This document shows positions 8,485 to 30,964 of a DNA stretch of 32,000 nt, one piece after another (the first letter of the stretch is position 1; the number at the start of each line of letters is the position of its first letter). Origin of the DNA: an uncultured bacterium (lineage in GTDB: Bacteria > Auribacterota > JACPWU01); NCBI GenBank assembly GCA_964640155.1, contig CAZXEQ010000003.1, forward strand, positions 1 to 32,000. Direction: 5' to 3'. A program made the translations under genes and the position numbers. The notes under the pieces are model-generated. The model made no database searches and was not told the origin of the DNA. It saw only the letters and a program-made list of their open reading frames with translations.

Positions 8485-8487
8485 TCT

Positions 8488-11346: not shown

Positions 11347-11362
11347 ATTTTATTCAAAAATG

Positions 11363-13324
11363 TTATTTCCCTTTTTCTTCTGATTCAGGGTCAATCGTTT
11401 GAAACCCTGCCTTTGTCAAGGCTGTTTGAACGTTCTTATTTTGCATCATCATTTTCCAAACAAGTCCCGTTCGATAATTTTCAATCATGAGCAACATCAC
11501 CCCTTGATCAATTCCAATATGATCATGAGAAAACCAATTCATTTCTGGGTTAAAAGCACTTACAGGTCCATAGGTGCCCCAAATTTTTTCTCCATAAGTG
11601 AGCATCAAATTTTTAAAACTCTTAATGACAAGTTTGGGTGTGAAAGGTAAAGATGAAATGAGGGCATAAGGGGCTAATGTTCCATCATGTTGATTTTCCA
11701 TCGCTCCATAGGCGCGATAGCCTTTAGGGCCATCTGAAGCAGAAAGACCCCAACCCAAAGGACCATATCCTTTAAAATCAGACGCATGACGTATGCAGAA
11801 CTCTCGATTGGCAAGAATACACTTTTTAGAATTTTCCCAGTAATTTGTATGCGTGTCGTGTTTATTTCTAAAATCGATAAATGCTTGAGAGTAAAGCTGT
11901 GTAAACAGTGAGCGTTGAGGATCACTGATAAACTCAAAAGAACCTTCAACATATTTTTCTCTACGCCATTCATTCCAGGCGCTTGAGGCAACGGGATGAG
12001 TTGGAGAGCCTATGGCTAAAAGGTATAAAATCATTTGTTCTGCAGCCATATTCCAGACCAGTGATTTATCAAACCCTTGTTCTGGCTTCCAGGACATGTA
12101 CAAAAGCCCTTTTTCATTCGCACTCATCCAGTTCCACTCTACATTTTCATAAAGTTGATAAGCAAGGTGGCTGATATCAGAGTTTGGAAAATATTGGGCA
12201 ACAAAAAGAACTCCCGCCATCAGAAGTGCTGTATCAATGGATGAAACTTCACTATCCGCCCAGCGTTTTCCAGTTCTGGCATCTAAAAAGTGATAGAAAT
12301 AGCCATGTTCCTGATCTGCCTTTTGAAGTGTTTTTAATATGTCAGATACTTTTTTTTGCACTTCTACACGACTTAACCAACCACGTTTTTCTGCTATACA
12401 ATAGGCGATTAGGCCAAAGCCTGTTGCTGCAATGCTAGAGGGGCTACCTGGGGTGTTGCGATCTTTAATTAAACCCGTTTGGGAAGAGTATTGCTCAATA
12501 AAGTACTGAAAGATTTTATTTTGAAGGAAATCCAGAAGCAAATCGTTATTTCCTTCTAATAAATGAAGTAATTGATTATACGTTTCAACTTTAGCTTTGC
12601 GTTGTATTTGGTCATATTGTTTTTGAGATCCAATGAGTGCGAAATGGTCAAAATAGAGAGAGCCCACCTTAGCGTCAGCGATCTGGCTTTCAAAAACAAT
12701 GGTTAATTCCTCAACAGGAGAGATATTATTAGAATTAGAAAAATTTTTTAAAGGGATTGAAATTTCTTGCCAGCTGTCTCTAACCCCGATGACATAATAA
12801 ACTCTATTTCCGTGAGCTGTTTTTAACTCAATCTTAAAACGACGTGTAAAACCTGTTGTTGCGTCACCTCGAACACGAAAGTAAAGAAATTCAAAGGGTT
12901 TTAAGTCAATACCATTGAGTCTTGTCCAATAGCCATTATATGCAACCTGTTTGGATTCTACATCATAGGTGAGCCTTAATACTTTATTTTTATCTTTTTC
13001 TGAATGAGAATCATAAACAATTGCTTCAACACATGTTTCTTGGGGATCTAAAGGATCTTTCTCCCAAGCTCCAGAATTCCCACCTAAGTGATTCAAAATT
13101 GAGTTTTCGTCAAAGTTATCAATAAGAAAGATTAATTTATCATCCTTAACATTTGTAGTAGGAGAAAGAGAAGTAGCTGCTTGAGGTAGCCTTGGAATTG
13201 AAGGCTTCTTGATAGGGGCTTGACTTGAATCAACCTGAACTTCCAAATCTGCTCTTATTTGTACGCTAATAGGATTCAATAAGTAACAGACTAAAAATAT
13301 AACTGAAGCATAAATAGTTTTCAT
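11363..13324 (-). CDS. Secreted CBM-like module + PF10091/GH144-like glucanase-like protein
   Basis: Signal-like N-terminus MKTIYASVIFLVCYLL. Aa ~62-232 carry the shared module (TYDVESKQVAYNGYWTRL...GSLYFDHFAL). The catalytic-like part has PSSIAATGFGL, GYFYHFLDARTG, SSIDTALLMAG and GIDQGVMLLMIENYRTG. RBS aaggag upstream. Confidence 0.8.
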   Translation of the reverse strand: MKTIYASVIFLVCYLLNPISVQIRADLEVQVDSSQAPIKKPSIPRLPQAATSLSPTTNVKDDKLIFLIDNFDENSILNHLGGNSGAWEKDPLDPQETCVEAIVYDSHSEKDKNKVLRLTYDVESKQVAYNGYWTRLNGIDLKPFEFLYFRVRGDATTGFTRRFKIELKTAHGNRVYYVIGVRDSWQEISIPLKNFSNSNNISPVEELTIVFESQIADAKVGSLYFDHFALIGSQKQYDQIQRKAKVETYNQLLHLLEGNNDLLLDFLQNKIFQYFIEQYSSQTGLIKDRNTPGSPSSIAATGFGLIAYCIAEKRGWLSRVEVQKKVSDILKTLQKADQEHGYFYHFLDARTGKRWADSEVSSIDTALLMAGVLFVAQYFPNSDISHLAYQLYENVEWNWMSANEKGLLYMSWKPEQGFDKSLVWNMAAEQMILYLLAIGSPTHPVASSAWNEWRREKYVEGSFEFISDPQRSLFTQLYSQAFIDFRNKHDTHTNYWENSKKCILANREFCIRHASDFKGYGPLGWGLSASDGPKGYRAYGAMENQHDGTLAPYALISSLPFTPKLVIKSFKNLMLTYGEKIWGTYGPVSAFNPEMNWFSHDHIGIDQGVMLLMIENYRTGLVWKMMMQNKNVQTALTKAGFQTIDPESEEKGK

Positions 13325-13365
13325 GGGTGAAAAGCTCCTTTCTTAGGAAGCTTCCTCGTTCACCC
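13325..13365 (-). promoter_or_regulatory. 5'-UTR hairpin that pairs the SD and abuts the start codon of the 11363..13324 gene
   Basis: Minus-strand RNA reads gggtgaa-cgaggaagcttcctaagaaaggagctt-ttcaccc-AUG. The outer 7-bp stem is gggtgaa/ttcaccc. In the inner stem, aagcttcc pairs with ggagctt, which contains the SD. Confidence 0.3.
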
Positions 13366-13772
13366 AGTATCTTATTGCTAAAAATAATCATAAAAGTGCA
13401 TTTATGAACATTTTAATAAAAAATGGTTACTTGTTTAGGAAGGAATCATTTCTTATTTTGCCTACTTACCGAAGTCCCATGGATTTGCATCTGTGGAATA
13501 CCTCTGTAGCGGGATCATAAATTTTATTCTAGATCATCTTAAAGAGCAGCAAGATATAGAATATATTGTGCACAAAATTAAGATATTTGTCAATATTCTT
13601 TTAAAGTTAAAGGGTTAAAGGTAAAATAAAACAAATCTTTAAAAATACTTAAATAAAAAGTTTTATATCTCTATATTTCGTACATTTTTTAAATTATTTA
13701 TTTTTTGAACAAGTTTGTTGTTTTTTTTTATTTTTATTTTAAATAAATATATTTCTTTAAAAGGAGATAAAA

Positions 13773-15728
13773 ATGAAAAAAGTAGTTATTTTTTTTGTTT
13801 TAGGATTTTTTTGTAGTTTTTCAGGTATTTTTTCCTCTCAGGCTTCAGTTTTATCTCAAGAAGATCAAGTTTATCTAAAAAAAATCATGCAAGAAACTTG
13901 GGCATGTATTTCTGATCTTGTAGATGAGAAAAGTGGTATCCCTTTTGATAGTAGTGCAAAGCCAAATTACACCTCTATGAGTAATATTGGATTTTATCTG
14001 GCAAGTATTTTTGGAGCACAAGAAGCAGGATTGATTAATCAGAAGGAAGCAGAGGTTCAAATTAAAAAAGTTTTAGATTTTTTAGATCGTCTTGAAAAAT
14101 GGCGTGGTTTTCCCCCAAGTTGGTTGCAAGTTTATCAACCTATCAGTTTAGAAAAGATTATTTCTCCTGTGGATTCTGCAAATTTAGTAGCAGGCCTTCT
14201 CGTTATTCGACAAGGTTATCCTATTTTTAAGGATCAAATTACAAAACTAATCAATGCCATGGATTGGAAGGCTTTCTATGACAATAAGGCTAATTCTCTA
14301 AAAGGTGGATATAATCTTAGGAAAAAGAGAGAGCTCTCATTTCAATATAAAGATTTAGGAACTGAGCTTAGAATGGCATTTTTTCTGACAATTGCGACAA
14401 AAGCAGCTCCTTTAAAATTATGGACTGAATTGGACAAAATTCTTGAAGAACGTTATGACATTCAATATTTAGGGCCTGGCTGGAAAAATGGGGGACTTTT
14501 CCTTCAAGGAATGACAGGGTTATTTTTGGATGAAAGAGGAACCATGATGGGTAAATCTTTTGTGAATATGGCCTATGCTCAAATTTTACATGCAAAGCAA
14601 AAAAAATATCCTTTTTGGGGTTGGTCCGCTTGTTCTACTCCAGATGGAGGTTATTTAGGTGCTGGGAAGGTTATGGATCAAGTCGTAACTCCACATGCGT
14701 CAGTCTTGGCTATTTCCTATTACCCTCAACAAGTTGTTAAAAATCTCAAACAATTAGATCTCTATAAAATACGTAAGCCTTTTTATTCCAATCATGGACC
14801 TAAAAATTATGGATTTCGTGATGCCATTGATTTGAAATCAAAAAAAGTGACGGAACGTTATTTAATGATTGATCAGACCATGATTTTTTTGAGTTTAGTC
14901 AATTTTTTACACGAAGGAGTGATTTATAAGACATTTTCAAGAGATCCTATTGTGAAACAAGGTTTGGATCTTATTTCCGACTATAAAAACTCTTTTTTGC
15001 GTGAAGTCGAAGAAATTTGTCAAAAGAGAGACAAAGGATTAGAAGAAAAAATTCCTTTGGAGTTAGATTTATCAAATCCTATCATTAAACCTTTTGTAGA
15101 GTCTGTATATGTTGAAACAGTTGCAAAGCATGTAAAGCAGAAAGTAATGATCGATGGACATTTGTCCGAATGGTCTGAGGCAAAAGCAGAGACTTTTCCA
15201 TTAAGTAGAACTTTAGAATCAGGACTTGTTCAAAACACTCAAGATTTAGATGCAAAAGCCTATTTCTTATGGGATGAAAAATATCTTTTTTTTGCCATTG
15301 AGGTTATGGATGATGAAATAATAAATGATGAAGAGGCGAAGAATCTTTTTAAAGGAGATTGTATTGAGCTTTTTATTGATCCAGATAATGATGTTTTAAA
15401 ATGGGGAAGTCTACAAGATTTTCAAATAGGTTTTTCGGCTCCTACAAAAAATCAAACTGCTAAGATTTGGGCATGGTTTCAATCACGAGCTCCTAAGTCA
15501 AACGAAATTCAATTTGGTGTAAGTTCGTTTGATGAAGCACGGAGAAAGGGTTATCGTGTTGAAGCTGCTATTGCTTGGAAGTTCTTGAAAGTTGAACCTA
15601 AGGCAGGCCGGATTTTAGGCATTTCTCCAGCGGTGCATGATATAGATTTAGATCAATCAGCCGAGACAAAACTAAATTGGTGCTATTTATCTGAAGGGAA
15701 GTTAGGTGGATTGAAACTAGAACAGTAA
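13773..15728 (+). CDS. Secreted DUF3131-type glucanase-like protein with C-terminal CBM9-like domain
   Basis: RBS aaggag lies 7 nt upstream. Signal peptide MKKVVIFFVLGFFCSFSGIFSSQA. Motifs YTSMSNIGFYLAS, GWSACSTPDGGY, YGFRDAIDL and LMIDQTMIFLSLVNFL are paralogous to 6469..8484. The C-terminal ~190 aa (IDGHLSEWSEA...YFLWDEKYLFFAIEVMDDE...GDCIELFIDPDND...GYRVEAAIAW) resemble CBM9. Confidence 0.8.
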   Translation: MKKVVIFFVLGFFCSFSGIFSSQASVLSQEDQVYLKKIMQETWACISDLVDEKSGIPFDSSAKPNYTSMSNIGFYLASIFGAQEAGLINQKEAEVQIKKVLDFLDRLEKWRGFPPSWLQVYQPISLEKIISPVDSANLVAGLLVIRQGYPIFKDQITKLINAMDWKAFYDNKANSLKGGYNLRKKRELSFQYKDLGTELRMAFFLTIATKAAPLKLWTELDKILEERYDIQYLGPGWKNGGLFLQGMTGLFLDERGTMMGKSFVNMAYAQILHAKQKKYPFWGWSACSTPDGGYLGAGKVMDQVVTPHASVLAISYYPQQVVKNLKQLDLYKIRKPFYSNHGPKNYGFRDAIDLKSKKVTERYLMIDQTMIFLSLVNFLHEGVIYKTFSRDPIVKQGLDLISDYKNSFLREVEEICQKRDKGLEEKIPLELDLSNPIIKPFVESVYVETVAKHVKQKVMIDGHLSEWSEAKAETFPLSRTLESGLVQNTQDLDAKAYFLWDEKYLFFAIEVMDDEIINDEEAKNLFKGDCIELFIDPDNDVLKWGSLQDFQIGFSAPTKNQTAKIWAWFQSRAPKSNEIQFGVSSFDEARRKGYRVEAAIAWKFLKVEPKAGRILGISPAVHDIDLDQSAETKLNWCYLSEGKLGGLKLEQ

Positions 15729-16147: not shown

Positions 16148-19100
16148 TTAGATGTCTCCCGTCAAGCGGATGAAGAACTTATGAGCATTGTCTTCTGCGC
16201 CTGTTCTAAGATCATCTGAGAAGTCTGTGAAGTTATATCCTGCTCCTAAACGAATATGATCGATCACTTGTCGATCCACTTCGACCAAAAATCCTGATTT
16301 GCGATCGCCTGTTTCAGTTTCTTTTAAGATTCGATATTCCCCGGCAAGATCCCATTTCTTCGTGATGTGGAAGTTGATACGGTTAATCCAAAGATGATTC
16401 TTAACTTCGATAAAATCACTGTCTAGGACGCTGACTTCACCAAATTTAAACGCATATTTTTCTACCAACTGGAACCAACGATTAATGTCGTAAGCTCCTT
16501 CAATAGAGGCAAGATGTGATCTTTCCAAAATATTCAGACCAAAATCAGACTGAGCTTCAGGATCATCATCACTTAAATAAGAATATTTACCAATAAAATT
16601 AAGTCTGTCTGCATAGACGGGACGGTAGGCAAAGCCGGTACCAGCTTCATAGAAGCAAGCTGCATCAATATCTGATGAGCGATTTTCTGTGAGTCCATAA
16701 TTAACTCTACCTAACCATTGTAAGTCTTCTGTTAGTTGCCACTTGATTAAGTTTTGAGTCAAATATTGACGCAAGGTGACATCCGAAAAGCCTTCGTCTT
16801 GGCGGAATTCAAACTTTGTGGAGGCGTTTAACCAATTCCATTTGGAGTAGGAGAGTGTACCTGAAACAGCGTCTCTACTTAAATCATCATCACTATCAAT
16901 ACGTTCATATGTAGATCCAAAAGACCATCCTTTTTGGAGACGTGTTTCATAACCAAAGAGGCTAGATTCTAACTGGCCTTTTCTGTAGTTTGTATACTGT
17001 TTTTCGGTGGTGAAATTGCTTCTTTCATCAATGTCAGTTCGTGTTCCAAATGTGGTTCGAGAAGCTCTTCCTAATGAATGATCCGTGCCCATCATTTGAT
17101 TGATATACATACGTGTTTTCTCACTGGTTTGCGCTTGAACACCTACCAAAGTTGAATTCCCACGTGTTCCAACCGTTTCTTGTCCTTGTAGCCAAATCTT
17201 TTCTGTGACTTTGACATCTGCTCCAACAGAGGTTTGATGATTATCTGGACCGGCAACAGTCACTTGTTGAGCAATAAAGGGGATAAATCTTCCACTCCAA
17301 TGATAACGAGCTTTTGCAGCAAGCGTGTCAGAAGACTCGTTAGTGAATTGGAAAAAGCCCGAAAGAGGATCATCAAAGGTTAAAGGATCTTCAATTTCAC
17401 GATGTTGATATTCGCCAGTCAATTCCCATTTTCCAATGTCATGGGTTAATTGGGCTGAAGTAGTGTGACTTCTGCTTCCATCAACCAATGAAGAGGAAAG
17501 GGGATTGGGTCCACCAATGGTAGTAGGGGAATAAAGACCCACAGAACGTATAGGATCATTTAATAATTTTTGAGTGTCATGACGAACATTTAAGAAAGTA
17601 GTGGCAGCTAGCTTCAGACTTGCTTCCACACCCATTTTTTGTGTGCCTTCTTCGAGGAGAGAAGAGGTGTTGGAAAATCCTGGAGCAATATATGTGTAAT
17701 AAGCTTTGGTTTTTAGGCGATCAGAAAAAGCTGTTTGTGCTTTTAAGCTGTAGGCCTGTTCATAATCCAGATTTGTGTTGAGATAATCTTGAGGGCTAAT
17801 GGCTTTATATTCATCCAAAGTTACATTGATGCTTCGGGTGTTCCCCTGAATGGTTCTAAAATAGGTGGGATCCGAAGCGTTAAAAGAAATACCCCCATCT
17901 TGTGAATAGCGTGTTCCAGATTGATCCCCTCGAGATTGAGCATATTCTGCAATGAATTTTGTCCATTTGCCAAGTTTCATCAAGATATCTCCACCGAGCA
18001 TCTTGTAATCAGGTCCTTGCCGATCTTCTTGAACAAATGTTCCACCGACACGCACATTGTCTAGGACTTGCTGATAGCCTCGAACAGCACGTGTAGGATT
18101 CTCAAATGGGGAAGAGGATAAATGCTCATAATCCACAACAAGAGAAGATGTATTTCCAGGTAAAATATTAGACGAAACAATACTATTAGAACCTGTTACA
18201 GAGGAGAGGGGTTTAGTAAGAATAATTCTTCCACTTCTGTAGTCCATTTCATAGTCAAGTCCTTCCGTCAAATCGATACGTGATGAAACACGCCCTGTTA
18301 CTCGGTCCCGTGTAACGACTTGCACTTTTTCACTTCCTTCTACGACTTGGTTGTATTTTAGATAATAAAGAGAACCACCAGTTCCTAAGAATTCGTCATG
18401 ACCTGCATTAGTTCCATCTTCAGCATAAAAACCTGTAATTCCTCCATAAGGATCACCGTAGGTATTGGTTTTTTCTCTTTGGGCATGAAGTTTTGCTCCG
18501 GATAAAGTTCTATTGTAAGTTGCAAGATCAAGATCAGTTAATCCGGTTTCAAAGCTACCCCATTGAAAATAGGATTTATCCATTTCAAGGAGCAAGAAAA
18601 GATTATTTCGTGTGTCCGTGGCTCTATAATCAATCACCGAACCATCCCCATAAACAGGATAATAACGATCAGGATCCAAATTAGTAAAAAATTTGGTGTT
18701 ATTCGAGCGGGATGTATCCAAAGAAGACGTGATTAAATAACGTCCCTTCACTTTTGCCTTCAAATAATAGGCAATACGCCCATTTTCATAAAAACCATCA
18801 TCAAATTCATCTTCATCTGAAACAGATTCAAGATGAGACGTAACATCTTTTCCGCCTAATTCACCTTCTGCCATACCCACCATGAAGAAATAATTATCTT
18901 GAACATCTAGCTCTCGAACATAAGTAATCGTTTTTCCCTTGGCATCAGTGTTGCTAATTTTTACAACCTGAACTCCTGGGGGAAGAAGGACTTCTTTTTC
19001 AAAAGTTCCATCTTCATGAACATAGGTGTCTTGGCCATTAATTTTAATCGTAGTCCCTGCTTCTGCATGACCTCGAACCATCACGCTGTTTTTATTTGTT

Positions 19101-21655
19101 ACAGGGATAGATTGATGGGGACGTTCGTTATCGTCTAATTGCACAAAAGAAGAACGTTCCACAACTGAAGCGATTTTCTTTTTATGAGTTGGGCGAAGAG
19201 TTTTAGTTACAGTCCAATCTTCATGCGTACCATCTGTTACAAAAAGTTGATAATAATACTCTTTCCCAGCTTCAATGGATGTTCCTTCATCCGTTTTTCC
19301 ATCCCATGAGGTGCGAGAGGGGACAGTAGGCCCCCCTTCTAAGGTTTTAATGGTTTTACCTTTATGATCACGAATTTCAATTTTCCATCCGGTAACCGTA
19401 TCCAAGTAGTTTCCATCCATATAGAAATACAAGGGTTCAAGCCATTTGTCTGAAAGGATTTGAGGTTCATTATTGCTGGCTTGCACATCGAGTTTAGGTG
19501 TGAATTTGTCATATTGCTGCGTGACATGAACTTCAATTTTGTCTTTATAGGCTTCTGGAATTGAAGTATCTGCAGGAACGCTCACAGCAAAATTGGCTTT
19601 GGATAAAATACCTTCAGTTGTTCTGACTAAAAAGGATTCTTCAGTCACAAAAGTTGATCCTGGTGGGAGGCTATGACGATCCACTTTGATTAAATGACGG
19701 CCTGGTTTGACGCCGGGGACATGATAGCGACCATAACGATCAGTATAAACAACGGTTCCTTCTTCCGTCGCTAAACGCACATCAGGAATTCCAAGTTCAC
19801 CTTTATCTTGTTTCCCATTTTTATTTTGATCATTAAATACTTTACCAATAATAGTGCCCAAATCAAAAGTGGGATCACCCAGCACAATGGTTTGTGTTGT
19901 GGACGTATTAGACAATTGAATGTTTAAATTTGAACTACGTGCAACAGCAGGGGAAATATATCTTCTTCCAAGCTCACTTCGTGTTCCTGTTTGAGTAACA
20001 TAGCTAATGGTGACTTCTTCTGAGCCTTGAATGGTTCCTAAATTAAAAGTAAGAGGAGAGTTTCTGGTTGGATCTGTGATTCTCTCACCGTTTCTTTGAG
20101 CTGTTCCATTACGATATTCAAAAGCTTCAGGAAGTTCATCGATTAAAAGTACATTATTGATGGCAAAGGTTGAATTATTTTTAAGATGTAGTTTATAGAC
20201 TAGTAAATCTCCTCGTGAAGCCTGCTTTTTATTTACATCCTTTCTCAAGACAAGGGGATAGCCAGGATCCATAGGAAGAGAGATTTTGGTATCAACCACA
20301 GCGCTAAAAAGCTCTCCATGATCACCCCCAACGACAGCATCATTGATTCGAGAAGGGAAGGTATAGCCTTCAGCAATGGCTCTTAAAGAACGAGAGGATC
20401 CATTTGGAACAATGAATTGAAAGGGGTTATCGGAATCTGTTGCAATCACACGCCCTGAAGCATCTAATAATTCAACGCGTGTTCCTGGAATCAATTGACC
20501 ATTGGTTGAACTGAAAACATCTCCTGTGATTTTTACAGGACCATTATCAAAAGTGGCACAAGCACGATCAAAAACAATATCCCCACCCCCTCCAGCGCCG
20601 GCATCTCCTAAAATGACAAGTACCGCAAAAGCTGTACCCGCAGGCGCTTTTCCAGAAACAGAAAATTGTTTGTATTCACCAAAGGCATTTGCGCTTGTAA
20701 TTTCATCGGAAAGAACTTCTTCGAGCAAATGATCATTAGCATCTTTAAATTCGATTTTAAGTTGGCCAAAAGCTCCTCCAGCCATATTGTCTGTTCGCGC
20801 ATAAATGCTGAAATCTATTTCAGCATCAGGAAGAACACCCCCAATGATTTGAAAAATTCCTGTAAACATGCCTCCAAAAATACCCATTTGAATGGCTCGG
20901 CTTCCATCCAGAGCTGAATGAGCCAATGTGGCGTTATCCCGTTGAGTCACTAGAGCAGATCCCAAAGGAAAACGTGTCCAACCTGGAAGAATTTCTTCTC
21001 CACTGGCTCCTGTTCTTTCAAAGCTAGAGTTGCTTGGAAAGTTGCAACTGGAAGCCGAAACACCGCTGGATATAATTGCAGAAACATCATCAACGAAATA
21101 TTCTGAAGATGAAGCTCCATTCATAGAATGAACAATGGTAAAGCGAATACTTGTGGTTCCAGTAGGAACTGTTCCTGAGATGGTGCTTGCAGAATAAGTG
21201 GATGACGTAGCAATGTTAGTGGAGCTTTCGACGGGTGCACTTGCGCTTCCTATAAATTCTATTTTGAGATGAAGGAAAGACAAAGTGTCTACACCTGTTT
21301 TTTTTGCATATGCTTGAAAGACGACAGTATCTCCAACGGAAAAGCCACTTGTTACATCTTGAAAAGCTCCAGAAAATAAAACTCCAGGACCTCCGAAGGA
21401 AGCTAGTTTTAAATAACCAGATCCAGTTCTGGCACTTCCATTTCCAAATGCAACATTCCACCATTCCGCAGCAGCTGTTGTAACCCCTGCTGTTCCGAAT
21501 TCTGTCCAGCTATCTGCGTTAAAAGTAGGCATTCCTGATTCAAAGCCCTTGTTGTCCAGAACTTCAGCAGCCTGGGCGGGAGTACTAAAAAAAATAAGTC
21601 CAAGTAAAAAGAGGGAGAGTTTCAGAGAATGTGTGTATGAAAGAGTCTTCTTCAA
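16148..21655 (-). CDS. Giant (1835 aa) outer-membrane-type protein: 2 CBM4_9-like modules + adhesin-type Ig-like repeats + large C-terminal beta-barrel-like region
   Basis: TTG start with gagg 6 nt upstream. Signal peptide ...FFSTPAQA/AE. Two CBM-like modules (NKGFESG...YFVDDVSA and NSSFERTG...GDIVFDRA). A DUF11-type repeat (GDLLVYKLHLKNNSTFAINNVLLIDELPEAFEY). An SdrD-B-like repeat (GKVFNDQNKNGKQDKGELGIPDVRL...GRYHVPGVKPG). A FlgD-Ig-like segment (WDGKTDEG...YYYQLFV). The last ~900 aa show alternating amphipathic strand patterns up to ...GAGYNFTDFSDDL. Confidence 0.85.
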   Translation of the reverse strand: MKKTLSYTHSLKLSLFLLGLIFFSTPAQAAEVLDNKGFESGMPTFNADSWTEFGTAGVTTAAAEWWNVAFGNGSARTGSGYLKLASFGGPGVLFSGAFQDVTSGFSVGDTVVFQAYAKKTGVDTLSFLHLKIEFIGSASAPVESSTNIATSSTYSASTISGTVPTGTTSIRFTIVHSMNGASSSEYFVDDVSAIISSGVSASSCNFPSNSSFERTGASGEEILPGWTRFPLGSALVTQRDNATLAHSALDGSRAIQMGIFGGMFTGIFQIIGGVLPDAEIDFSIYARTDNMAGGAFGQLKIEFKDANDHLLEEVLSDEITSANAFGEYKQFSVSGKAPAGTAFAVLVILGDAGAGGGGDIVFDRACATFDNGPVKITGDVFSSTNGQLIPGTRVELLDASGRVIATDSDNPFQFIVPNGSSRSLRAIAEGYTFPSRINDAVVGGDHGELFSAVVDTKISLPMDPGYPLVLRKDVNKKQASRGDLLVYKLHLKNNSTFAINNVLLIDELPEAFEYRNGTAQRNGERITDPTRNSPLTFNLGTIQGSEEVTISYVTQTGTRSELGRRYISPAVARSSNLNIQLSNTSTTQTIVLGDPTFDLGTIIGKVFNDQNKNGKQDKGELGIPDVRLATEEGTVVYTDRYGRYHVPGVKPGRHLIKVDRHSLPPGSTFVTEESFLVRTTEGILSKANFAVSVPADTSIPEAYKDKIEVHVTQQYDKFTPKLDVQASNNEPQILSDKWLEPLYFYMDGNYLDTVTGWKIEIRDHKGKTIKTLEGGPTVPSRTSWDGKTDEGTSIEAGKEYYYQLFVTDGTHEDWTVTKTLRPTHKKKIASVVERSSFVQLDDNERPHQSIPVTNKNSVMVRGHAEAGTTIKINGQDTYVHEDGTFEKEVLLPPGVQVVKISNTDAKGKTITYVRELDVQDNYFFMVGMAEGELGGKDVTSHLESVSDEDEFDDGFYENGRIAYYLKAKVKGRYLITSSLDTSRSNNTKFFTNLDPDRYYPVYGDGSVIDYRATDTRNNLFLLLEMDKSYFQWGSFETGLTDLDLATYNRTLSGAKLHAQREKTNTYGDPYGGITGFYAEDGTNAGHDEFLGTGGSLYYLKYNQVVEGSEKVQVVTRDRVTGRVSSRIDLTEGLDYEMDYRSGRIILTKPLSSVTGSNSIVSSNILPGNTSSLVVDYEHLSSSPFENPTRAVRGYQQVLDNVRVGGTFVQEDRQGPDYKMLGGDILMKLGKWTKFIAEYAQSRGDQSGTRYSQDGGISFNASDPTYFRTIQGNTRSINVTLDEYKAISPQDYLNTNLDYEQAYSLKAQTAFSDRLKTKAYYTYIAPGFSNTSSLLEEGTQKMGVEASLKLAATTFLNVRHDTQKLLNDPIRSVGLYSPTTIGGPNPLSSSLVDGSRSHTTSAQLTHDIGKWELTGEYQHREIEDPLTFDDPLSGFFQFTNESSDTLAAKARYHWSGRFIPFIAQQVTVAGPDNHQTSVGADVKVTEKIWLQGQETVGTRGNSTLVGVQAQTSEKTRMYINQMMGTDHSLGRASRTTFGTRTDIDERSNFTTEKQYTNYRKGQLESSLFGYETRLQKGWSFGSTYERIDSDDDLSRDAVSGTLSYSKWNWLNASTKFEFRQDEGFSDVTLRQYLTQNLIKWQLTEDLQWLGRVNYGLTENRSSDIDAACFYEAGTGFAYRPVYADRLNFIGKYSYLSDDDPEAQSDFGLNILERSHLASIEGAYDINRWFQLVEKYAFKFGEVSVLDSDFIEVKNHLWINRINFHITKKWDLAGEYRILKETETGDRKSGFLVEVDRQVIDHIRLGAGYNFTDFSDDLRTGAEDNAHKFFIRLTGDI

Positions 21656-21804: not shown

Positions 21805-23277
21805 CTAAAATCTGTTGATGTCAATCTTCACACCGACTCTGAAATCCCAATCGGGTTGATCACCATCAGGTTCATCTTTAAAATGATCAATCATATGATC
21901 GTATTCTGCAAAAATTTTAAAATTATATAGCCATTCATTTTTTTCAAAACGAGTTGTGTGAAAGGGCATATAGCGAGCTCCAAAACCTGCAAAAGCTCTA
22001 TTTTGAAAGAAAAATTCTCTTTGAGTAGATGTAAGCTCAACCTTAGCATAAGGCATTAACGGTGGGATATTGCCTATCCACGGAAATTTAACACCAAGCC
22101 AAGCAACATCTGTCCAAGTGAAACTTTCATAATCTTCACTGTTAAAGTCGGTTTTCTTCCATACATTCTCCATGAAAAGTTCACCCCAGAGATAATCAGA
22201 AAAACCTTCTCTTTCTTTATCAAAGGGTTTATCCCAACCCCATGCTTTATAAAGGCCCATTCCTGCTCGCCAATCATAAGTAGGAGCAGCAGAGTCAGTG
22301 TCTCGTAAATGAGAAAGATCCATATATTGTCCGAATAAGCGAAAATTACGAAGCCAATCTAGCCAAGGTGTTTGTTTTAAAAATCCAACACTTTCAAGAA
22401 GGTAATATTCTAATCCTGCTGCACCTACAAACTTATTTTCAAACGGGGTGTCATTGGAGCTGAGTGAAACGGTGCCTTCAATAAAAGGATTAAGGGTAGG
22501 CCATCCTTCTTTGAAGTGAAGTCCCTTCATAATAATTCTAAGTGAATGGAAACCAACAATATCATTAAAATAATCTGGATTTGAGATGGTATTGGGTGAA
22601 TCAAAGTTAGTTCTTCTCCAACTAAACTCGCCGAAAGTTTGATAATCGAATCGATCAGTCTCGTTTTTAAGCTCTGTGCCTGGAATAGCAACTCGTTGAA
22701 TCTTTTCATCTAAATGTAAAGGATAAGCTGATTTAGGTTTGAGTGAAGAAGGTGCAGTTTCGTTAGTAGATGAAGATACATTTTCTGGGACGACAGGGGT
22801 TTCTGATATTGCTTCAGTCTTTTCTTCAGAATGAAGCTTGATGCCTTCAGCCGAAGCTTTTTCTGCTACCTGCTTTGCTTGATCTAAAGTTGTATAAGAT
22901 TGATGTCCCACCCAGAAAAGGGAAGTCAATGAACCATCAACTGAAGGAAGTTCAAGTTCACGAATGCTCCCTCCTTGATGGATCTTAAGATGTTCATCAA
23001 TGAATTTTTGAGCAGAATCAAGATCTCGTGTTCCTATGAGGGGTTGGGATTCAACAACAGTCCCTTCAAAAGTTGAAACAACAGAGTATTGAGAGTTTTC
23101 TTGAGCGTTTTCAAAGAGGAGAAAGTCTTGATAAGAAGTTAAGCCTAATTTTTCTTGTAACCAAGAAGGAATCTGGAAAGAATCCTGCGCTTTTGAGGAT
23201 GAGGTGATTGCTAAAAAAAATCCCATCATCAAAAACAGACGAACAATATGATGAGCCGCCCCCTTCGTGTTTCTCAT
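21805..23277 (-). CDS. Secreted 490-aa protein with C-terminal beta-barrel-like region (putative outer-membrane protein)
   Basis: RBS aagga lies 5 nt upstream. Signal-like MRNTKGAAHHIVRLFLMMGFFLAITSSSKA/QD. The C-terminal half is rich in aromatic/alternating strands and ends ...VGVKIDINRF, a terminal Phe typical of OMP beta-signals. Confidence 0.75.
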   Translation of the reverse strand: MRNTKGAAHHIVRLFLMMGFFLAITSSSKAQDSFQIPSWLQEKLGLTSYQDFLLFENAQENSQYSVVSTFEGTVVESQPLIGTRDLDSAQKFIDEHLKIHQGGSIRELELPSVDGSLTSLFWVGHQSYTTLDQAKQVAEKASAEGIKLHSEEKTEAISETPVVPENVSSSTNETAPSSLKPKSAYPLHLDEKIQRVAIPGTELKNETDRFDYQTFGEFSWRRTNFDSPNTISNPDYFNDIVGFHSLRIIMKGLHFKEGWPTLNPFIEGTVSLSSNDTPFENKFVGAAGLEYYLLESVGFLKQTPWLDWLRNFRLFGQYMDLSHLRDTDSAAPTYDWRAGMGLYKAWGWDKPFDKEREGFSDYLWGELFMENVWKKTDFNSEDYESFTWTDVAWLGVKFPWIGNIPPLMPYAKVELTSTQREFFFQNRAFAGFGARYMPFHTTRFEKNEWLYNFKIFAEYDHMIDHFKDEPDGDQPDWDFRVGVKIDINRF

Positions 23278-23394: not shown

Positions 23395-23829
23395 TTATTG
23401 AATCAGTTCTTGAACATTATCATCAAATTCAATATTCACCAAAGTCCAATCCACGTTTTTATAGAAAAGAAATGTCCATCGCAAAGGATAATTTGTGTGT
23501 TTGGAAAGAAAGATAACTTTGCACAAGGTATCGGCTGTTGTAGAAGAGGAGACATAGACGCTTCCTTGTACTGAGCCATAAAGAGAAATTGCATTGGTGG
23601 TTTGGCCAATCAAATTTTCGACTTGGGCAGGATTTTTACCAATGGCGCCTCCTTCAATGATTTTTTGAATAGCAGGTTGAACTTGGCCATTTTGAAGTTG
23701 AGTAAAGAAGGCGTGAATTTTTTCTTGAACAGTAGAAGGAAGAGTTTCTGCGTTTGTGGTCTTTGAAAAGCTTAAGAAACTTGTTAATGCCAATAAACTT
23801 AAAACGATAGAAGTTTTACGTGTTTTCAT
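23395..23829 (-). CDS. Small (144 aa) secreted protein of unknown function
   Basis: An internal ATG at 23829 is preceded by aaggag. It gives MKTRKTSIVLSLLALTSFLSFSKTTNA/ET, a clean signal peptide. The longer listed ORF start at 23886 has no RBS and adds a non-signal extension. Confidence 0.7.
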   Translation of the reverse strand: MKTRKTSIVLSLLALTSFLSFSKTTNAETLPSTVQEKIHAFFTQLQNGQVQPAIQKIIEGGAIGKNPAQVENLIGQTTNAISLYGSVQGSVYVSSSTTADTLCKVIFLSKHTNYPLRWTFLFYKNVDWTLVNIEFDDNVQELIQ

Positions 23830-23897
23830 AATATGTCTCCTTAATATGATGTGAGTTGTAATCCCATAACGGGTATTATCGCACAAACCTGACCTTT

Positions 23898-24052: not shown

Positions 24053-24118
24053 GCATACGATCATTCTTATTGTCTTTTGTATTATCCGTTTACTCTATAC
24101 AGTCAATGTCATAAAATC

Positions 24119-24823
24119 ATGCTCATGAGAAATAAAATTTTTATCGTTTTTATATTTTTATCTATTTCAGGTCTGACTTTTGCCATGAGTTTAGGAAAAT
24201 GGAGAGACGACCGATTAAAATTTTCAGGGACATTGGAGTTAACTGAATATAGTTTGGGCTCTCGAGTGTCTGGAAGGATAAGTCAAATAAATATAGAAGA
24301 AGGAGATGAAATTAAGAAGGGAGATCTTGTTGCAACTTTAGATCGTTATGATCAAGCTAAGCGGGATTATGAACGCACATTAGGTCTTTTTAAAAATAAC
24401 GCCGTTTCACAGCAGGCGCTTGAACAAGCCGAATTGTCTTTAGAGGATCAGTGTATTGTGGCGCCTGTCGATGGTGTGGTTCTTGTGAAGGTTCATGAAT
24501 CAGGGGAAGTCGTTGCGTCGGGTTCTCCTGTTATTGTGATGGGTGATCATCAAAATTTATGGGTTCGTATTTATGTCCCAGAATCACTTCTTTATCAAAT
24601 TAAACTTCATCAAGAAGCTGATGTTAAAGTAGACGGTCTGGATAAAACTTTTCCAGGTCATGTTACTTTTATTGCAACGAAAGCCGAATTTACTCCTCGC
24701 AATGTACAAACTCCTGAAGAACGTGCCTCACAAACTTTTGCTGTTAAAGTGATGTTGGATCATCCCGATTCTTCTTTGAGACCGGGAGTTGGTGCAGATG
24801 TTGTTTTTCATGTAGATAGATAA
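24119..24823 (+). CDS. HlyD-family membrane-fusion / periplasmic adaptor protein
   Basis: N-terminal TM segment (IFIVFIFLSISGLTFA). Lipoyl-like hairpin motifs (GRISQINIEEGDEIKKGDLVATLD and APVDGVVLVKVHESGEVV). TPRNVQT motif typical of YbhG/HlyD_D23 adaptors. I chose the first ATG (24119) over the listed TTG at 24077. Confidence 0.8.
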   Translation: MLMRNKIFIVFIFLSISGLTFAMSLGKWRDDRLKFSGTLELTEYSLGSRVSGRISQINIEEGDEIKKGDLVATLDRYDQAKRDYERTLGLFKNNAVSQQALEQAELSLEDQCIVAPVDGVVLVKVHESGEVVASGSPVIVMGDHQNLWVRIYVPESLLYQIKLHQEADVKVDGLDKTFPGHVTFIATKAEFTPRNVQTPEERASQTFAVKVMLDHPDSSLRPGVGADVVFHVDR

Positions 24824-24826
24824 AAT

Positions 24827-25759
24827 ATGAATCCTATCGCCATTGATGTTCAAAATCTAACACGCCGATTTGGAGATTTTGTCGCGGTTCATCAGGTGAC
24901 ATTTCAAATTCGTTATGGAGAGATTTTTGGGTTTCTGGGGCCCAACGGTGCAGGGAAAAGTACGACGGTTCGTATGCTTTGCGGCATTCTTGAACCCACC
25001 GAAGGAACAGCCAAAGTTGCTGGATTTGACGTAAACACAGATTCAGAACGAGTGAAAGAATCCATCGGTTATGTTTCTCAACGCTTTAGTCTTTATACGG
25101 ATTTAACTGTGGAAGAGAATCTGGCTTTTTATGGTCGAATTTATAATTTATCGAAAAATATTTTAAACAAAAGAATTCAAGAAGTCTTGCAATTGACTCA
25201 TTTGGAAGATTTTCGAAAACGAAAGGCAGGAGAACTTTCTGGAGGATGGAAGCAGCGTTTGGCGATTGCGAATGCCTTTCTTCATCAACCTAAAATTTTA
25301 TTCTTAGACGAACCTACCGCAGGCCTAGATCCAGTTTCGCGCAGAGACTTGTGGGAGATGCTTTATCAATTGGCCGATCAAGGTGTGGCTCTTTTTGTGA
25401 CCACGCATTATATGGAAGAGGCGGAGCGTTGTCACAACATAGCTTTCATTAGCCAAGGTTCTCTTTTGCGTTTGGGAGAGCCTACGACTTTGAGAAATTC
25501 TATTCCAGGCAAGGCCTTTGAAATAGAATGCCAACCCCTCATGAAAGCTTCTCGACTTTTTCATTCAGTCCTCGGCGTGACGAGCGTAACGGCCTATGGA
25601 ACACATCTTCATGTGATTGTTCAAGAAGAGAAAGTGGTGCAAGATTTAAGGAAGATCGCAGAAGAAGGGCAGATCAAAATTTTTTCGATGAAGTCTATTT
25701 CTGCTTCTTTGGAAGATGTATTTGCGACATTGACAGAGGCGGCTTATGAAAAGAATTAG
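24827..25759 (+). CDS. ABC transporter ATP-binding protein (ABC-2 / drug-exporter type)
   Basis: Walker A GPNGAGKST, Q-loop SQRF, signature LSGGWKQRL, Walker B ILFLDEPTAGLD, H-loop TTHYMEE. Starts 3 nt after the adaptor stop. Confidence 0.9.
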   Translation: MNPIAIDVQNLTRRFGDFVAVHQVTFQIRYGEIFGFLGPNGAGKSTTVRMLCGILEPTEGTAKVAGFDVNTDSERVKESIGYVSQRFSLYTDLTVEENLAFYGRIYNLSKNILNKRIQEVLQLTHLEDFRKRKAGELSGGWKQRLAIANAFLHQPKILFLDEPTAGLDPVSRRDLWEMLYQLADQGVALFVTTHYMEEAERCHNIAFISQGSLLRLGEPTTLRNSIPGKAFEIECQPLMKASRLFHSVLGVTSVTAYGTHLHVIVQEEKVVQDLRKIAEEGQIKIFSMKSISASLEDVFATLTEAAYEKN

Positions 25760-26849
25760 TGCTGTTGCAAGAAAAGAATTTTTGCATGTTTTGAGGGATA
25801 AGCGCACGTTGATGCTGATTATTTTTATGCCTCTTTTTCAATTGATTCTCTATGGTTATGGCATTAACAACGATGTCAAACATTTGGCGACAGGTGTCAT
25901 TGATGAAGATCAAACATCTCTCAGTCGTCGGTTGATCAGTGCTTTTGAACAATCAGAATATTTTGATGTTAAGAGAAAAACTTTTTCTTCAAAAGATTTA
26001 CGTCATGATTTGGATAAAGGAGTGGTGAGGGTAGGGCTTCATATTCCACCTGACTTTACTAAAGATTTATATGCTGGGCGAAGTGTGCCTCTTCAATTGA
26101 TTATTGATGGAACAGATTCAAATCCTGCCAATACGGCTCTCAATACCAGTCGAGCGATTATTCAAGCTTTTATGCAGAAAGAAGAATTGATTCCTATTGA
26201 TGTCTTGCCCATCGATTTCAGACCTCGACTTTGGTATAACCCCGATTTAAAAAGTTCTTTTTTTATGGTTCCAGGGCTTGTAGGTCTTTTACTTCAAGTG
26301 TTGATTCCAATGATTACAGCAAGTGCTATTGTTCGTGAGAAAGAACGGGGGAATATTGAACAGTTGCTTGTGACTCCTATTAAATCTCATGAACTGATGA
26401 TTGGAAAATTGGTTCCCTATATTTGTATTGGTTTGTTGATATCTTTTTCTATTATCTTTGCATCAAGATTCATTTTCTCTATTCCAATATTAGGGAGTCC
26501 TTTAACCTTGTTAGGGCTCACATTCCTTTTTCTGGTTGTCTGTTTGGGCTATGGTCTTTTTGCTTCTACGATTGCCGACAATCAGCAACAAGCATCTCAG
26601 ATTGTGATGTTTGTTGTTCCGCCTTCCATTCTTTTGTCAGGCTATATTTTCCCAAGAGAAGGGATGCCGTGGCCTATTTATGGAGTTAGCTTTCTTATTC
26701 CCCTGACGTATTATGTCAAAATTGTGAGAGGAATTCTTTTGAAGGGATTAGACCTTCGTGATTTGTGGGATCAAGTGCTGCCACTTTTAGCGATGGCAAT
26801 TGCAGTTGTAAGTATTAGTATTTTAAAATTTAGAAAACGTATTGCCTAA
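25746..26849 (+). CDS. ABC-2 type transporter permease
   Basis: Overlaps the ATPase gene by 14 nt. One N-terminal TM segment, a ~140-aa periplasmic loop, then five or so hydrophobic segments. This is the typical YbhS/YbhR-like ABC-2 layout. Confidence 0.85.
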   Translation: MKRISAVARKEFLHVLRDKRTLMLIIFMPLFQLILYGYGINNDVKHLATGVIDEDQTSLSRRLISAFEQSEYFDVKRKTFSSKDLRHDLDKGVVRVGLHIPPDFTKDLYAGRSVPLQLIIDGTDSNPANTALNTSRAIIQAFMQKEELIPIDVLPIDFRPRLWYNPDLKSSFFMVPGLVGLLLQVLIPMITASAIVREKERGNIEQLLVTPIKSHELMIGKLVPYICIGLLISFSIIFASRFIFSIPILGSPLTLLGLTFLFLVVCLGYGLFASTIADNQQQASQIVMFVVPPSILLSGYIFPREGMPWPIYGVSFLIPLTYYVKIVRGILLKGLDLRDLWDQVLPLLAMAIAVVSISILKFRKRIA

Positions 26850-26867: not shown

Positions 26868-28085
26868 TTATAAAGAAATTGTTTCTCCTTCATTTTCAAG
26901 ACTGAGCATAAGCAAAATATAATCTCTTAAATGTCGTGTGATGAGAAAATTTTGACGAACATGTTCTTTTCCGTTTTTACCAAGTTTTTCTGCAAAACTA
27001 GGATTTTGTAAAATTTGTTTGGTGTAATAAGCTGTTCCTTCAATGGTATGGGAAAGTAAGCCCGTATATCCATGTGATATTTGTAAGGTAATACCTCCTA
27101 CAGCGGAAGCCACAACAGGCTTTGATTTCCATAGAGCTTCTGCAACAGTCAGTCCAAAGCCTTCTCTTAAAGATTTCTGAAGAACCACTTGAGAAGCCCG
27201 TTGTAATGCATTAATTTCAATGTCGGAAGAGGGAGGTAGAAATAAAACATGAATATCGGGATCATTTTTTGCTTCTTCTTCAACCATTTCTAAGATTTTT
27301 GCTCCTTCAGGATCATCTGTAGCTCCTCCTCCCGCAAGAATCAATTGGCAATCAATGGCTTTTTTCACCAATCGATAAACTTTGATGACTCCGAGAGGAT
27401 CTTTTTGATAATCGAAGCGTGAGATTTGACTCATAATAGGTTTATTAGTTTCGATTTTTAATTTTTTGAGTACATCACTGATAATTTCAGGAGATAAATC
27501 TTTATTTTTATCACTGAGAGGATCGATAGAAGGACTGATGAGTACTTGCCGTATAGGAAGGGGTTTTGAAAAGGAGGGTGCAGAGAAAATAACAGCATCA
27601 TAATGTTTAATGTATCCTTCCAAATAAGTCCAAAGGAGGGGATCTGAAGAAGCAGAATCAATATGGCATCGCCATACCCATTTTTTGCCAATGCGAGATT
27701 TTTTTTCAATAAGTCCAATGGGTTGGGGATCATGAATAAAAAAATGGTCACTTGAAAGATCCATCTCAAGTAAATTTTGGCGGTTTACTTCTTCAAAATG
27801 ATCGAGTTCGTCTCGACTTAACTCATCTTTTCTTCCATGAAGCATGTTGTGAATTTTCTTTGTAACGGAAAAGAATTTTTCGCCTCCTTTAATTACATCC
27901 CATTTAGCATTAATGCCCACTTCGCCGAAGAGGGGAATCATGCGATTTAATATTTCAGCAACTCCACCTCCGACAGCTGTAGAATTAACATGTTGCATGT
28001 TGCGACCTTTTAAGCGACTGGCCAAAAAGCGGATTTCATCCACAGTGGATTTTCCAATAAAAGGAATATATTGATCTAGAATCAT
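26868..28085 (-). CDS. treT: GT4 glycosyltransferase, trehalose glycosyltransferring synthase (TreT)-like
   Basis: HVNSTAVGGGVAEIL, WVWRCHID, SPSIDPLSDKN, SRFDYQKDP, ATDDPEG, SLREGFGLTVAEALWKSKPVVASAVGGI and NFLITRHLRDY match my recollection of archaeal/bacterial TreT proteins along the whole length. Confidence 0.7.
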   Translation of the reverse strand: MILDQYIPFIGKSTVDEIRFLASRLKGRNMQHVNSTAVGGGVAEILNRMIPLFGEVGINAKWDVIKGGEKFFSVTKKIHNMLHGRKDELSRDELDHFEEVNRQNLLEMDLSSDHFFIHDPQPIGLIEKKSRIGKKWVWRCHIDSASSDPLLWTYLEGYIKHYDAVIFSAPSFSKPLPIRQVLISPSIDPLSDKNKDLSPEIISDVLKKLKIETNKPIMSQISRFDYQKDPLGVIKVYRLVKKAIDCQLILAGGGATDDPEGAKILEMVEEEAKNDPDIHVLFLPPSSDIEINALQRASQVVLQKSLREGFGLTVAEALWKSKPVVASAVGGITLQISHGYTGLLSHTIEGTAYYTKQILQNPSFAEKLGKNGKEHVRQNFLITRHLRDYILLMLSLENEGETISL

Positions 28086-29455: not shown

Positions 29456-29475
29456 AATCATCCTTTCTTAAAAAA

Positions 29476-30963: not shown

Positions 30964-30964
30964 A

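Follow-up and report, generated by a model that had tools for sequence, protein, structure and literature searches.

A putative fibrillar adhesin ending in a predicted giant outer-membrane barrel, encoded by an uncultured Auribacterota bacterium

Introduction

What is the function of a secreted protein that begins with two modules resembling carbohydrate-binding modules (CBMs), continues with adhesin-type domains, and ends in some 900 residues of alternating amphipathic strands? Such a protein is encoded at positions 16148-21655 of the window studied here, a stretch of 32,000 nucleotides (nt) from an uncultured bacterium of the Auribacterota (lineage JACPWU01; assembly GCA_964640155.1, contig CAZXEQ010000003.1, positions 1 to 32,000). 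A preliminary description of this DNA had suggested that the protein captures a glycan and imports it through its C-terminal part. The analysis presented here points to a different reading, to which we assign a probability of roughly one in two: the protein is a lectin of fibrillar-adhesin-like build that passes through, and is anchored by, a giant outer-membrane (OM) barrel of a new type. The OM barrel, the Ig-like stalk domains and the CBM-like tip are all of kinds already known, and the novelty lies in how large the predicted barrel is, in its regular association with giant adhesins, and in a partner gene encoded upstream.

Gene and domain organisation

The gene and its parts are listed below, with lengths in amino acids (aa) and scores from Pfam unless another source is named.

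16148..21655, minus strand: whole gene, a secreted multidomain protein of 1835 aa (list of open reading frames, ORFs; TTG start)
21569..21655, minus strand: Sec signal peptide, aa 1-29 (by sequence reading; orthologues begin likewise)
21050..21568, minus strand: CBM-like jelly-roll module 1, aa 30-202 (paralogy, and Foldseek on the predicted fold)
20516..21049, minus strand: CBM-like jelly-roll module 2, aa 203-380 (paralogy, and Foldseek on the predicted fold)
20255..20515, minus strand: CarboxypepD_reg-like beta-sandwich, about aa 381-467 (limits approximate, placed by sequence)
19889..20254, minus strand: DUF11 / CLIPPER stalk domain, aa 468-589 (PF01345, 30.5 bits with a cut-off of 24.6; also TIGR01451)
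19649..19843, minus strand: SdrD_B-like domain, aa 605-669 (PF17210, 36.4 bits with a cut-off of 29.7)
19244..19387, minus strand: FlgD-Ig-like core, aa 757-804 (PF13860, below cut-off)
18902..19102, minus strand: Ig-like domain of the Glucodextran_B type, aa 852-918 (PF09136, 35.2 bits with a cut-off of 27)
16151..18913, minus strand: giant beta-barrel-like domain, aa 915-1835, 921 aa (AlphaFold2, Foldseek, family profile)
18158..18382, minus strand: small conserved beta insert in the barrel, domain residues 178-252 (DSSP elements at 182-232)

A GAGG motif lies about 5 nt 5' of the TTG start codon, and no in-frame ATG is found before the signal peptide, which reads KK...LSLFLLGLIFF with cleavage after LSLFLLGLIFFSTPAQA and before AE (…STPAQA, then AE). 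An identical protein is present in NCBI (P0001, on a 357-kb contig; proteins of the homologue set are numbered with P, loci with L). The ORF and the signal sequence agree with the preliminary description, which had given an 1835-aa reading frame with a TTG start and a clear signal peptide, and its domain-by-domain reading of the N-terminal half is likewise supported by Pfam, by TIGR01451 and by the fold of the modules.

The stalk is composed of single, differing domains, not of a long tandem array. Its CarboxypepD_reg-like part is the least certain in placement: the Pfam family PF13620 (CarboxypepD_reg) finds two stretches, both below cut-off (27.1 vs 32.3 bits), and the best one listed, aa 630-662, falls within the SdrD_B region. 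The SdrD_B-like domain occurs in most members of the family defined by the C-terminal domain. The FlgD-Ig-like domain is conserved beside the barrel across alignment A1, and the family profile matches FlgD (3osv) weakly there. The Glucodextran_B-type Ig domain directly precedes the barrel, a position that is unchanged in homologues. CLIPPER (DUF11) is a stalk domain of fibrillar adhesins (PMC12617251), and the window protein combines a signal peptide with stalk-type domains (CLIPPER/DUF11, SdrD_B and Ig-like), as do fibrillar adhesins in the sense of that work. The Pfam scan of the window protein gave no SLH, LysM or OmpA domain. Membership in the chlamydial OmcB group was rejected, as the protein has only one DUF11 domain, no Chlam_OMP6 match, and three cysteines counted by eye.

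A widespread family of C-terminal domains

The last 921 aa of the protein have no match in Pfam (2025 copy, tried to an E-value of E<=10), NCBIfam (2026) or the sequences of the PDB. When aa 915-1835 were searched against 1.84 billion cluster representatives, 2986 of these matched at E<=1e-3 and 947 at E<=1e-30. Among 285 family proteins sampled, 262 contain the full domain. It stands at the C-terminus (median tail of 0 aa), preceded by an N-terminal region of 1 to 6719 aa. These N-terminal regions are unrelated to one another, and the domains found in them across the family are of adhesin-stalk types, namely CLIPPER, CLIPPER_2, SdrD_B, SpaA, Big and Cadherin-like. Named sources of the matches are Omnitrophota, metagenome-assembled genomes (MAGs) labelled Chlamydiae, Deltaproteobacteria-type MAGs, Thermodesulfovibrionia, and Thiotrichales (Cocleimonas, Leucothrix).

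Several features of the family are those of OM proteins. In the 262 full-length members the strands show an amphipathicity of period 2, with one hydrophobic and one polar face; the family profile matches the porin KdgM at E 2e-6; and in two homologues OMP_b-brl and Porin_4 score above the Pfam cut-off inside the domain. A terminal aromatic residue is present in 199 of 220 members, within the pattern …G[W/P/F]F[V/I/L][R/N][L/V/M]xGK[Y/F/W]. The preliminary description had remarked on an end of ...FFIRLTGDI without such a residue. This is correct, yet it makes the window copy an exception in a family that carries the beta-signal: three orthologues end in …GK[F/Y/W], and the window copy departs from this by plain substitutions, not by a frameshift, with the FFIRLTG strand intact (16148-16180, minus strand).

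Predicted structure of the C-terminal domain

The 921-aa domain was modelled with AlphaFold2 from an alignment of 92 sequences. The model, which is nearly all beta, has a mean predicted local distance difference test score (pLDDT) of 81.9 and a predicted template modelling score (pTM) of 0.81. DSSP assigns 48 strand elements to it, with 43 long antiparallel strands joined by short turns outside an insert of ~75 aa. This insert (LGTGGSLYYL…DYEMDY…GRIILTKPL) contains the invariant residues T178, G179, Y184, G193, D220 and Y221, and is a possible plug or cap.

In a Foldseek search of the PDB, the listed matches are almost all OM barrels, at template modelling scores (TM) of no more than 0.30. They include SlpA (30 strands, E 6e-10), MtrB, LptD, many TonB-dependent receptors, SprA (36 strands) and the FimD usher. 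That no barrel of 16 to 36 strands superposes above TM 0.30 suggests that the type of fold is shared but the size is not. If all long strands form one wall, a barrel of about 40-44 strands is predicted, while a conservative count, from residues 385-921 alone, predicts at least about 28. The largest solved single-chain barrel is that of SprA, with 36 strands, and the sole precedent found for a larger one is a mention of three 38-strand barrels predicted by AlphaFold for Deinococcus radiodurans (PMC9388160). The literature searched, including papers on giant Omnitrophota proteins, contains no description of the barrel family or of the partner presented below. These values are in agreement with the preliminary description: a barrel-like C-terminal domain of ~900 aa, far larger than ordinary porins if a barrel, had been suggested, and the predicted structure is OM-barrel-like, neither a solenoid nor a propeller.

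The model may nevertheless overstate the size of the barrel. Under this alternative, the giant barrel would be partly an artefact of prediction, with an ordinary large barrel of 26-30 strands in the C-terminal ~540 aa and a separate, beta-rich soluble domain in the conserved first ~345 aa. The first 345 domain residues are indeed clearly more conserved than the rest (2.38 vs 1.75 bits per column), and HMMER divides the domain at residues 345/386. Coevolution lends no help in either direction: in a mean-field direct coupling analysis (reduced alphabet, 262 domains, effective number of sequences 249), even the adjacent hairpins that served as positive control rose barely above background, so that the test has no power for the pairing of first and last strand that would show closure. 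However, a pTM of 0.81 denotes a confident overall arrangement, barrels of 16-30 strands stay within the TM limit given above, and the first strand (YFFMVG…) and the last are both strongly conserved, as expected if they pair to close a single barrel. An artefact of this kind is hence considered unlikely, and a single giant barrel is retained as the working model in what follows.

Association with giant adhesin-type proteins

Some members of the family (~1200 aa) consist of the barrel only. For each of the four examined, the gene immediately upstream, in the same orientation, encodes a giant adhesin-type protein. The upstream proteins are as follows.

L007, 1-7911: adhesin-type protein, >6829 aa, CLIPPER_2
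L015, 1-3789: adhesin-type protein, Big_6, Big_13, CshA_repeat and SdrD_B
L016, 3130-9867: adhesin-type protein, CshA_repeat and Big_9
L018, 134-9910: adhesin-type protein, 3258 aa, CarboxypepD_reg, SdrD_B and SpaA repeats

The four upstream proteins end alike: an SdrD_B-type motif (…TTENPRVLR.TG…INFGVKLP) leads into an apparently degenerate OmpA-like domain. Three of these proteins were scanned with Pfam; the domain scores under the cut-off in two and gives no match in the third, and in L018 it was recognised by eye. Fused relatives carry an OmpA domain at the corresponding point, where stalk meets barrel (P0007 aa 780-883). L016 contains a second barrel gene, which precedes, rather than follows, a gene for a 3205-aa CLIPPER protein. 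In the same locus (L016:13736-20764), paralogous barrel genes (P0101 and P0135) lie on either side of a MacB-type ABC transporter and a membrane-fusion protein. At L017, an assembly gap (a run of N, 9960-10000) separates a 2686-aa ORF from P0097, which has an OmpA domain from residue 11 and lacks a signal peptide. Probably both are pieces of a single fused protein of ~3900 aa.

A conserved partner gene

Upstream of the giant gene lies the following gene.

21805..23277, minus strand: partner gene, 490 aa, with a signal peptide, ending …KIDINRF, unannotated; homologues stand upstream of giant genes

The partner protein has no match in Pfam, NCBIfam or the PDB, either alone or as a profile. A homologue at 84% identity is present in a Candidatus Auribacterota MAG. 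Homologues stand directly upstream of the giant gene at L004 (1339-2892; 45% identity) and in six Omnitrophota genomes (~30% identity over 486 aa, E down to 2e-59; L006:6413-7996, L008:5277-7934, and about 8001-9400 in L010-L013). When genomes were searched with the partner, a further five loci had sufficient flanking sequence (one shares its contig with L008), and a barrel gene is downstream in all five. Partner and giant gene thus form a two-gene cassette that is conserved from the lineage of the window to the Omnitrophota. No such adjacency was seen at the P0003 loci, at L005, or at loci of the Thiotrichales type. At the P0003 loci (L001/L002), RHS/YD-repeat fragments are found in the partner's place upstream of the giant gene. 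Scans of the window for promoters and terminators near the two genes gave no more than the shuffled expectation. Synteny suggests that the protein, which resembles an outer-membrane protein (OMP), is perhaps a dedicated partner of the barrel, in the role of plug, gate or assembly factor.

In the Omnitrophota the pair behaves like a core gene. The order dapF-dapA-dapB-partner-giant-(130-aa ORF)-uvrA is the same in six genomes (L006, L008/L014, L010, L011, L012 and L013), in most of which the giant proteins are only 37-40% identical.

Two alternatives draw on these loci. According to the first, barrel and partner would mainly be a secretion pore for some other cargo, protein or polysaccharide, and the N-terminal domains would be its accessories in the periplasm or the lumen, on the pattern of SprA-PorV (type 9 secretion) or of exopolysaccharide porins such as BcsC and PgaA. 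In predicted size the barrel is close to SprA, the conserved OMP-like partner recalls SprA with PorV or Plug, and in the split loci the adhesin is a separate polypeptide. In most members, however, the candidate cargo is covalently fused to the barrel; furthermore, no synthase or export ATPase is consistently adjacent, and Pfam finds no signature of the type 9 secretion system (T9SS), BcsC, PgaA or TPR. A pore for foreign cargo is therefore regarded as quite improbable.

The second is the main rival. The protein would connect the OM to the cell wall in the style of SlpA, OmpM or OmpA, with an Ig stalk of ~20 nm spanning the periplasm, the jelly rolls bound to peptidoglycan or a periplasmic glycan, and nothing exposed on the surface. 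This would explain why the best Foldseek match is Deinococcus SlpA, which is built on the same logic (N-terminal wall-binding domain, spacer, 30-strand barrel), why some homologues have an OmpA peptidoglycan-binding domain N-terminal of their Ig domains and barrel, and why the Omnitrophota orthologues are uniform in length (~1550 aa) and lie in the dapF-dapA-dapB…uvrA block, as a core envelope gene might. What it fails to accommodate is the remainder of the family, in which the barrel domain bears or follows adhesin repeats of up to 6719 aa, too much for the periplasm. Moreover, CLIPPER and SdrD_B are known from cell-surface stalks, the window protein itself has none of the wall-binding domains sought with Pfam (SLH, LysM, OmpA), and the OmpA-like domain of its relatives, placed at the junction of stalk and barrel, fits a threaded topology too. 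Folds like those of CBM4, CBM16 and CBM22 are not known to bind peptidoglycan. A periplasmic connector is rather unlikely on this evidence, yet it is the alternative taken most seriously here, and surface display through the barrel is still preferred.

The N-terminal modules and the question of glycan import

The two N-terminal modules are paralogues (30% identity over 125 aa, E 4e-7), and both bear the motifs N.(G/S)FE...W and F(V)DD. The preliminary description had recognised two modules of ~170 aa by this pattern, rightly so, and had assigned them to the CBM4_9/CBM22 type, an assignment that stands for the fold but not for the sequence. For aa 29-380 AlphaFold2 was given a shallow, five-sequence alignment, and the resulting model has module cores mostly at pLDDT 70-87. 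The best Foldseek match is the tandem CBM22-1/CBM22-2 of Xyn10C (4xup, E 7e-11), next in line are the CBM-like domains of Vip3 toxins, and further matches are CBM16 (TM 0.70, target-normalised), CBM4 and a Bacteroides surface glycan-binding protein. In the model, a CBM-type fold (a beta-jelly-roll) holds, while membership in a CBM family by sequence does not, and the fold makes the tip modules candidate glycan binders.

A word-based homologue search with the modules gave one weak match, to a PF02018 protein (E 9e-3), and had suggested that the modules are limited to four close orthologues. A local iterative search contradicts this: a single copy of the module stands directly after the signal peptide in ~58 Omnitrophota proteins (~1550 aa), which also have the 921-aa-type domain at the C-terminus. 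Since these ~58 proteins share both ends, the plan of tip, stalk and barrel belongs to an orthologous group, and is not a one-off fusion.

The surroundings of the gene in the window are as follows.

13773..15728, plus strand: convergent neighbour, a secreted enzyme resembling glycoside hydrolase family 144 (GH144) and DUF3131, with CBM9 (Pfam)
5719-6303, plus strand: secreted GH144-like or CBM-bearing gene (Pfam, signal peptide)
6469-8484, plus strand: secreted GH144-like or CBM-bearing gene (Pfam, signal peptide)
8488-11346, plus strand: secreted GH144-like or CBM-bearing gene (Pfam, signal peptide)
11363-13324, minus strand: secreted GH144-like or CBM-bearing gene (Pfam, signal peptide)
11-3130, plus strand: 1039-aa ORF without a Pfam match, with proline-rich near-repeats at its start (PDVPSDTARVDAVTPDVP…)
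23395-23886, minus strand: 163-aa ORF upstream of the partner, with a signal peptide if the start is an internal Met (MKTRKTSIVLSLLALTSFLSF…)
24077-26849, plus strand: HlyD-type adaptor, ABC ATPase and ABC-2 permease, of exporter type, beyond the cassette and the 163-aa ORF
26868-28750, minus strand: trehalose-synthase-like glycosyltransferase of family 4 (GT4; TreT_GT1) and a DUF5752 gene, overlapping by 4 nt
29027-31630, minus strand: small DUF3568 ORF and an OmpR-type two-component system

Of the five secreted proteins of 5719-15728, four have PF10091 (GH144 endo-beta-1,2-glucanase-like) together with modules of the CBM9, CBM11 or CBM30 type; CBM9 is that of the convergent neighbour. The PF10091 cluster is related to the endo-beta-1,2-glucanase 5gzh (E 7e-61), and the PDB relatives of the convergent neighbour are 8wy1 and 8rf9 (cyclic beta-1,2-glucan synthase, glucanotransferase region) as well as 5gzh. 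By its sequence content, the region looks like a beta-1,2-glucan locus. The GH144-like enzymes may act on the same glycan as the tip modules, although the link is weak. As to the other genes, the 1039-aa ORF may be truncated by the edge of the window, and the 163-aa ORF matches no family, nor did any of the other loci show a homologue of it.

Capture and import of a glycan would mean that the CBM-like modules catch a polysaccharide, possibly the one on which the neighbouring GH144-like enzymes act, which would then be taken up through the giant barrel. The CBM-type fold of the tip, the five secreted GH144-like or CBM-bearing proteins within 11 kb, the very wide barrel predicted, and the GH144-like/CBM9 gene retained as a neighbour of the orthologue P0003 (62% identity) are all in keeping with it. 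(At the P0003 loci, the gene of a 23S rRNA intervening-sequence protein sits between the giant gene and the GH144-like/CBM9 gene.) The comparison of homologue neighbourhoods, which the preliminary description had suggested, goes the other way. Near the closest orthologue (P0002, 72% identity) there are no glycan enzymes, the CBM9 enzyme included; the Omnitrophota orthologues with the same tip module lie in a housekeeping block; and the barrel family goes with adhesin genes, not with loci of carbohydrate-active enzymes. These are adhesion-type loci unrelated to glycan enzymes, the very outcome that had been named as undercutting import. Neither does Pfam find a TonB box, Plug, TonB-receptor or SusC-type signature, and the nearby ABC system is of the ABC-2/HlyD exporter type, not an importer. 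The C-terminal module is, moreover, general in its associations. The import proposal is not supported, and we consider it very improbable.

Proposed mechanism

The evidence above is best accommodated by a surface lectin held in a barrel of its own. The signal peptide, as read from the sequence, would direct export by Sec, and the C-terminal 921 aa are predicted to fold as a very large OM barrel, which the barrel assembly machinery (BAM) would insert, probably by way of the GK[F/Y/W] beta-signal of the family. The FlgD-Ig-like and Ig-like domains, conserved throughout the family, would stay behind, within the barrel or beside it on the periplasmic side, together with any OmpA-like domain. The SdrD_B and CLIPPER domains, the CarboxypepD_reg-like sandwich and the two jelly rolls would thread via the lumen to the cell surface, where the tip modules, judging by their fold, might bind the glycan of a surface, a partner cell or a polymer. 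With the modules at the far end of a short stalk, the layout would agree with the definition of fibrillar adhesins in PMC12617251. The 490-aa OMP-like partner would act as plug, gate or assembly factor, a role suggested by synteny. A chain threaded through the barrel and held there is favoured because N-terminal regions of several thousand residues are too large for the periplasm.

A number of observations weigh against this proposal. Placement in a housekeeping block in the Omnitrophota suits an adhesin no better than a core envelope component. Given the OmpA-type domain found N-terminal of the barrel in homologues (P0100 aa 97-200, P0007 aa 780-883), at least the barrel-proximal region, and perhaps the whole N-terminus, would be periplasmic. 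Surface exposure of the N-terminal part is inferred from family architecture and from adjacency to giant adhesin genes. Closure of the membrane barrel and the number of its strands are predictions, and the first 345 residues, as the most conserved part, might belong to a soluble plug or cap and not to the wall. The window copy lacks the terminal aromatic residue of its family (GDI, not GK[F/Y/W]). At the tip, no CBM family of Pfam, including CBM_4_9 (PF02018), matches aa 29-380 at E<=10, a 26-sequence profile of the module finds nothing significant among PDB sequences (CBM16 at E 0.3), and confidence in the module model is moderate (pLDDT 63 overall).

A broader claim can be made more tentatively, and we consider it possible rather than probable: the family may constitute an undescribed system of OM display or secretion, with a single-chain barrel of at least 40 strands (larger than SprA), an OMP-like partner, and folded Ig-like stalks that pass through the barrel and are held by it, whether as part of the same chain or as products of an upstream gene. 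It would be spread over Omnitrophota, lineages of the Planctomycetes-Verrucomicrobia-Chlamydiae (PVC) group, Desulfobacterota-type MAGs and Thiotrichales, and would be a core envelope component in the Omnitrophota.

Significance

The OM barrels known to have the double task of anchoring and exporting surface proteins are all small, with 12 to 16 strands (type V). If the proposal is true, it explains how many fibrillar adhesins of Gram-negative bacteria without a recognised secretion signal are delivered and attached to the surface, and it adds a new size class of barrel for BAM to assemble. Omnitrophota include episymbionts and predators, and the lectin-tipped version in their core gene block would be a candidate for attachment to host or prey. 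Family members also occur in named genera with isolates, namely Cocleimonas sp. KMM 6892 (L015) and Leucothrix sargassi (L007).

Comparison with known systems

The preliminary description had not recognised the arrangement of glycan-binding modules and a giant barrel in one polypeptide. Indeed, no characterised family has it, but the fusion is not unique: it is widespread, though undescribed. Parts of the plan can be compared with several known systems.

Like Deinococcus SlpA and OmpM, the window protein starts with a putative binding module and, after a long spacer, ends in a predicted barrel of very large size, the family of which has a beta-signal as they do. In contrast to them, the window protein has neither SLH domain nor coiled coil, as its N-terminal part matches only beta-sandwich or Ig-type families and its tip is modelled as beta; the TM to SlpA is only 0.26, more strands are predicted here, and the present family is tied to adhesin-type repeat proteins. 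SprA, of the type 9 translocon, is comparable in predicted scale, and a dedicated OM partner is plausible here too. However, there is no sequence similarity to SprA (TM 0.12-0.23), no T9SS genes lie nearby, and the cargo of SprA is unfused.

The CBM4/9, CBM16 and CBM22 families share the beta-jelly-roll with the tip modules, which are in tandem like CBM22-1/CBM22-2 of Xyn10C, whereas the modules here show no significant match to CBM sequences and are not joined to an enzyme.

Membership in other groups of OM proteins was considered and rejected. For TonB-dependent or SusC-type importers, there is no Plug or TonB_dep_Rec match, and the TM to TonB-dependent transporters is 0.11-0.19 (query-normalised). 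For LptD, there is no Pfam match to OstA_N or LptD/OstA_C, and the TM is 0.15-0.20 (query-normalised). Ushers and T9SS components were dismissed for want of a sequence signature and for low TM-scores, and the classical autotransporter (PF03797) because Pfam gives no match at E<=1 for the whole protein or at E<=10 for the C-terminal domain.

CLIPPER fibrillar adhesins, such as B9T28_05395 of Acinetobacter silvestris, likewise have a signal peptide, an adhesive tip, a CLIPPER/Ig-like stalk and an anchoring region (PMC12617251). The anchor of B9T28_05395 is an OmpA-like domain, while the anchor proposed here is a giant barrel, of a kind not described in that work. Autotransporters and two-partner secretion systems (types Va and Vb) share a C-terminal barrel with an N-terminal passenger, and occur in both fused and split forms, as the present family does. 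They differ in the Autotransporter, POTRA and ShlB-type domains, which are absent here, in a passenger that is a beta-helix rather than a row of Ig-like sandwiches, and in a barrel of 12 or 16 strands, far smaller than the one predicted here.

Inverse autotransporters (type Ve, intimin and invasin) also combine an OM barrel, an Ig-like stalk and a lectin-like tip in one polypeptide. Unlike in these proteins, the order here is reversed, with the tip at the N-terminus and the barrel at the C-terminus, and a partner gene is conserved; there is no sequence relation, as no Pfam family matches the barrel region, and their 12 strands compare with the ~920 aa and ~40 strands predicted here. Intimin has a periplasmic peptidoglycan-binding domain at its barrel, which parallels the OmpA-like domain found at the junction of stalk and barrel in some relatives of the window protein.

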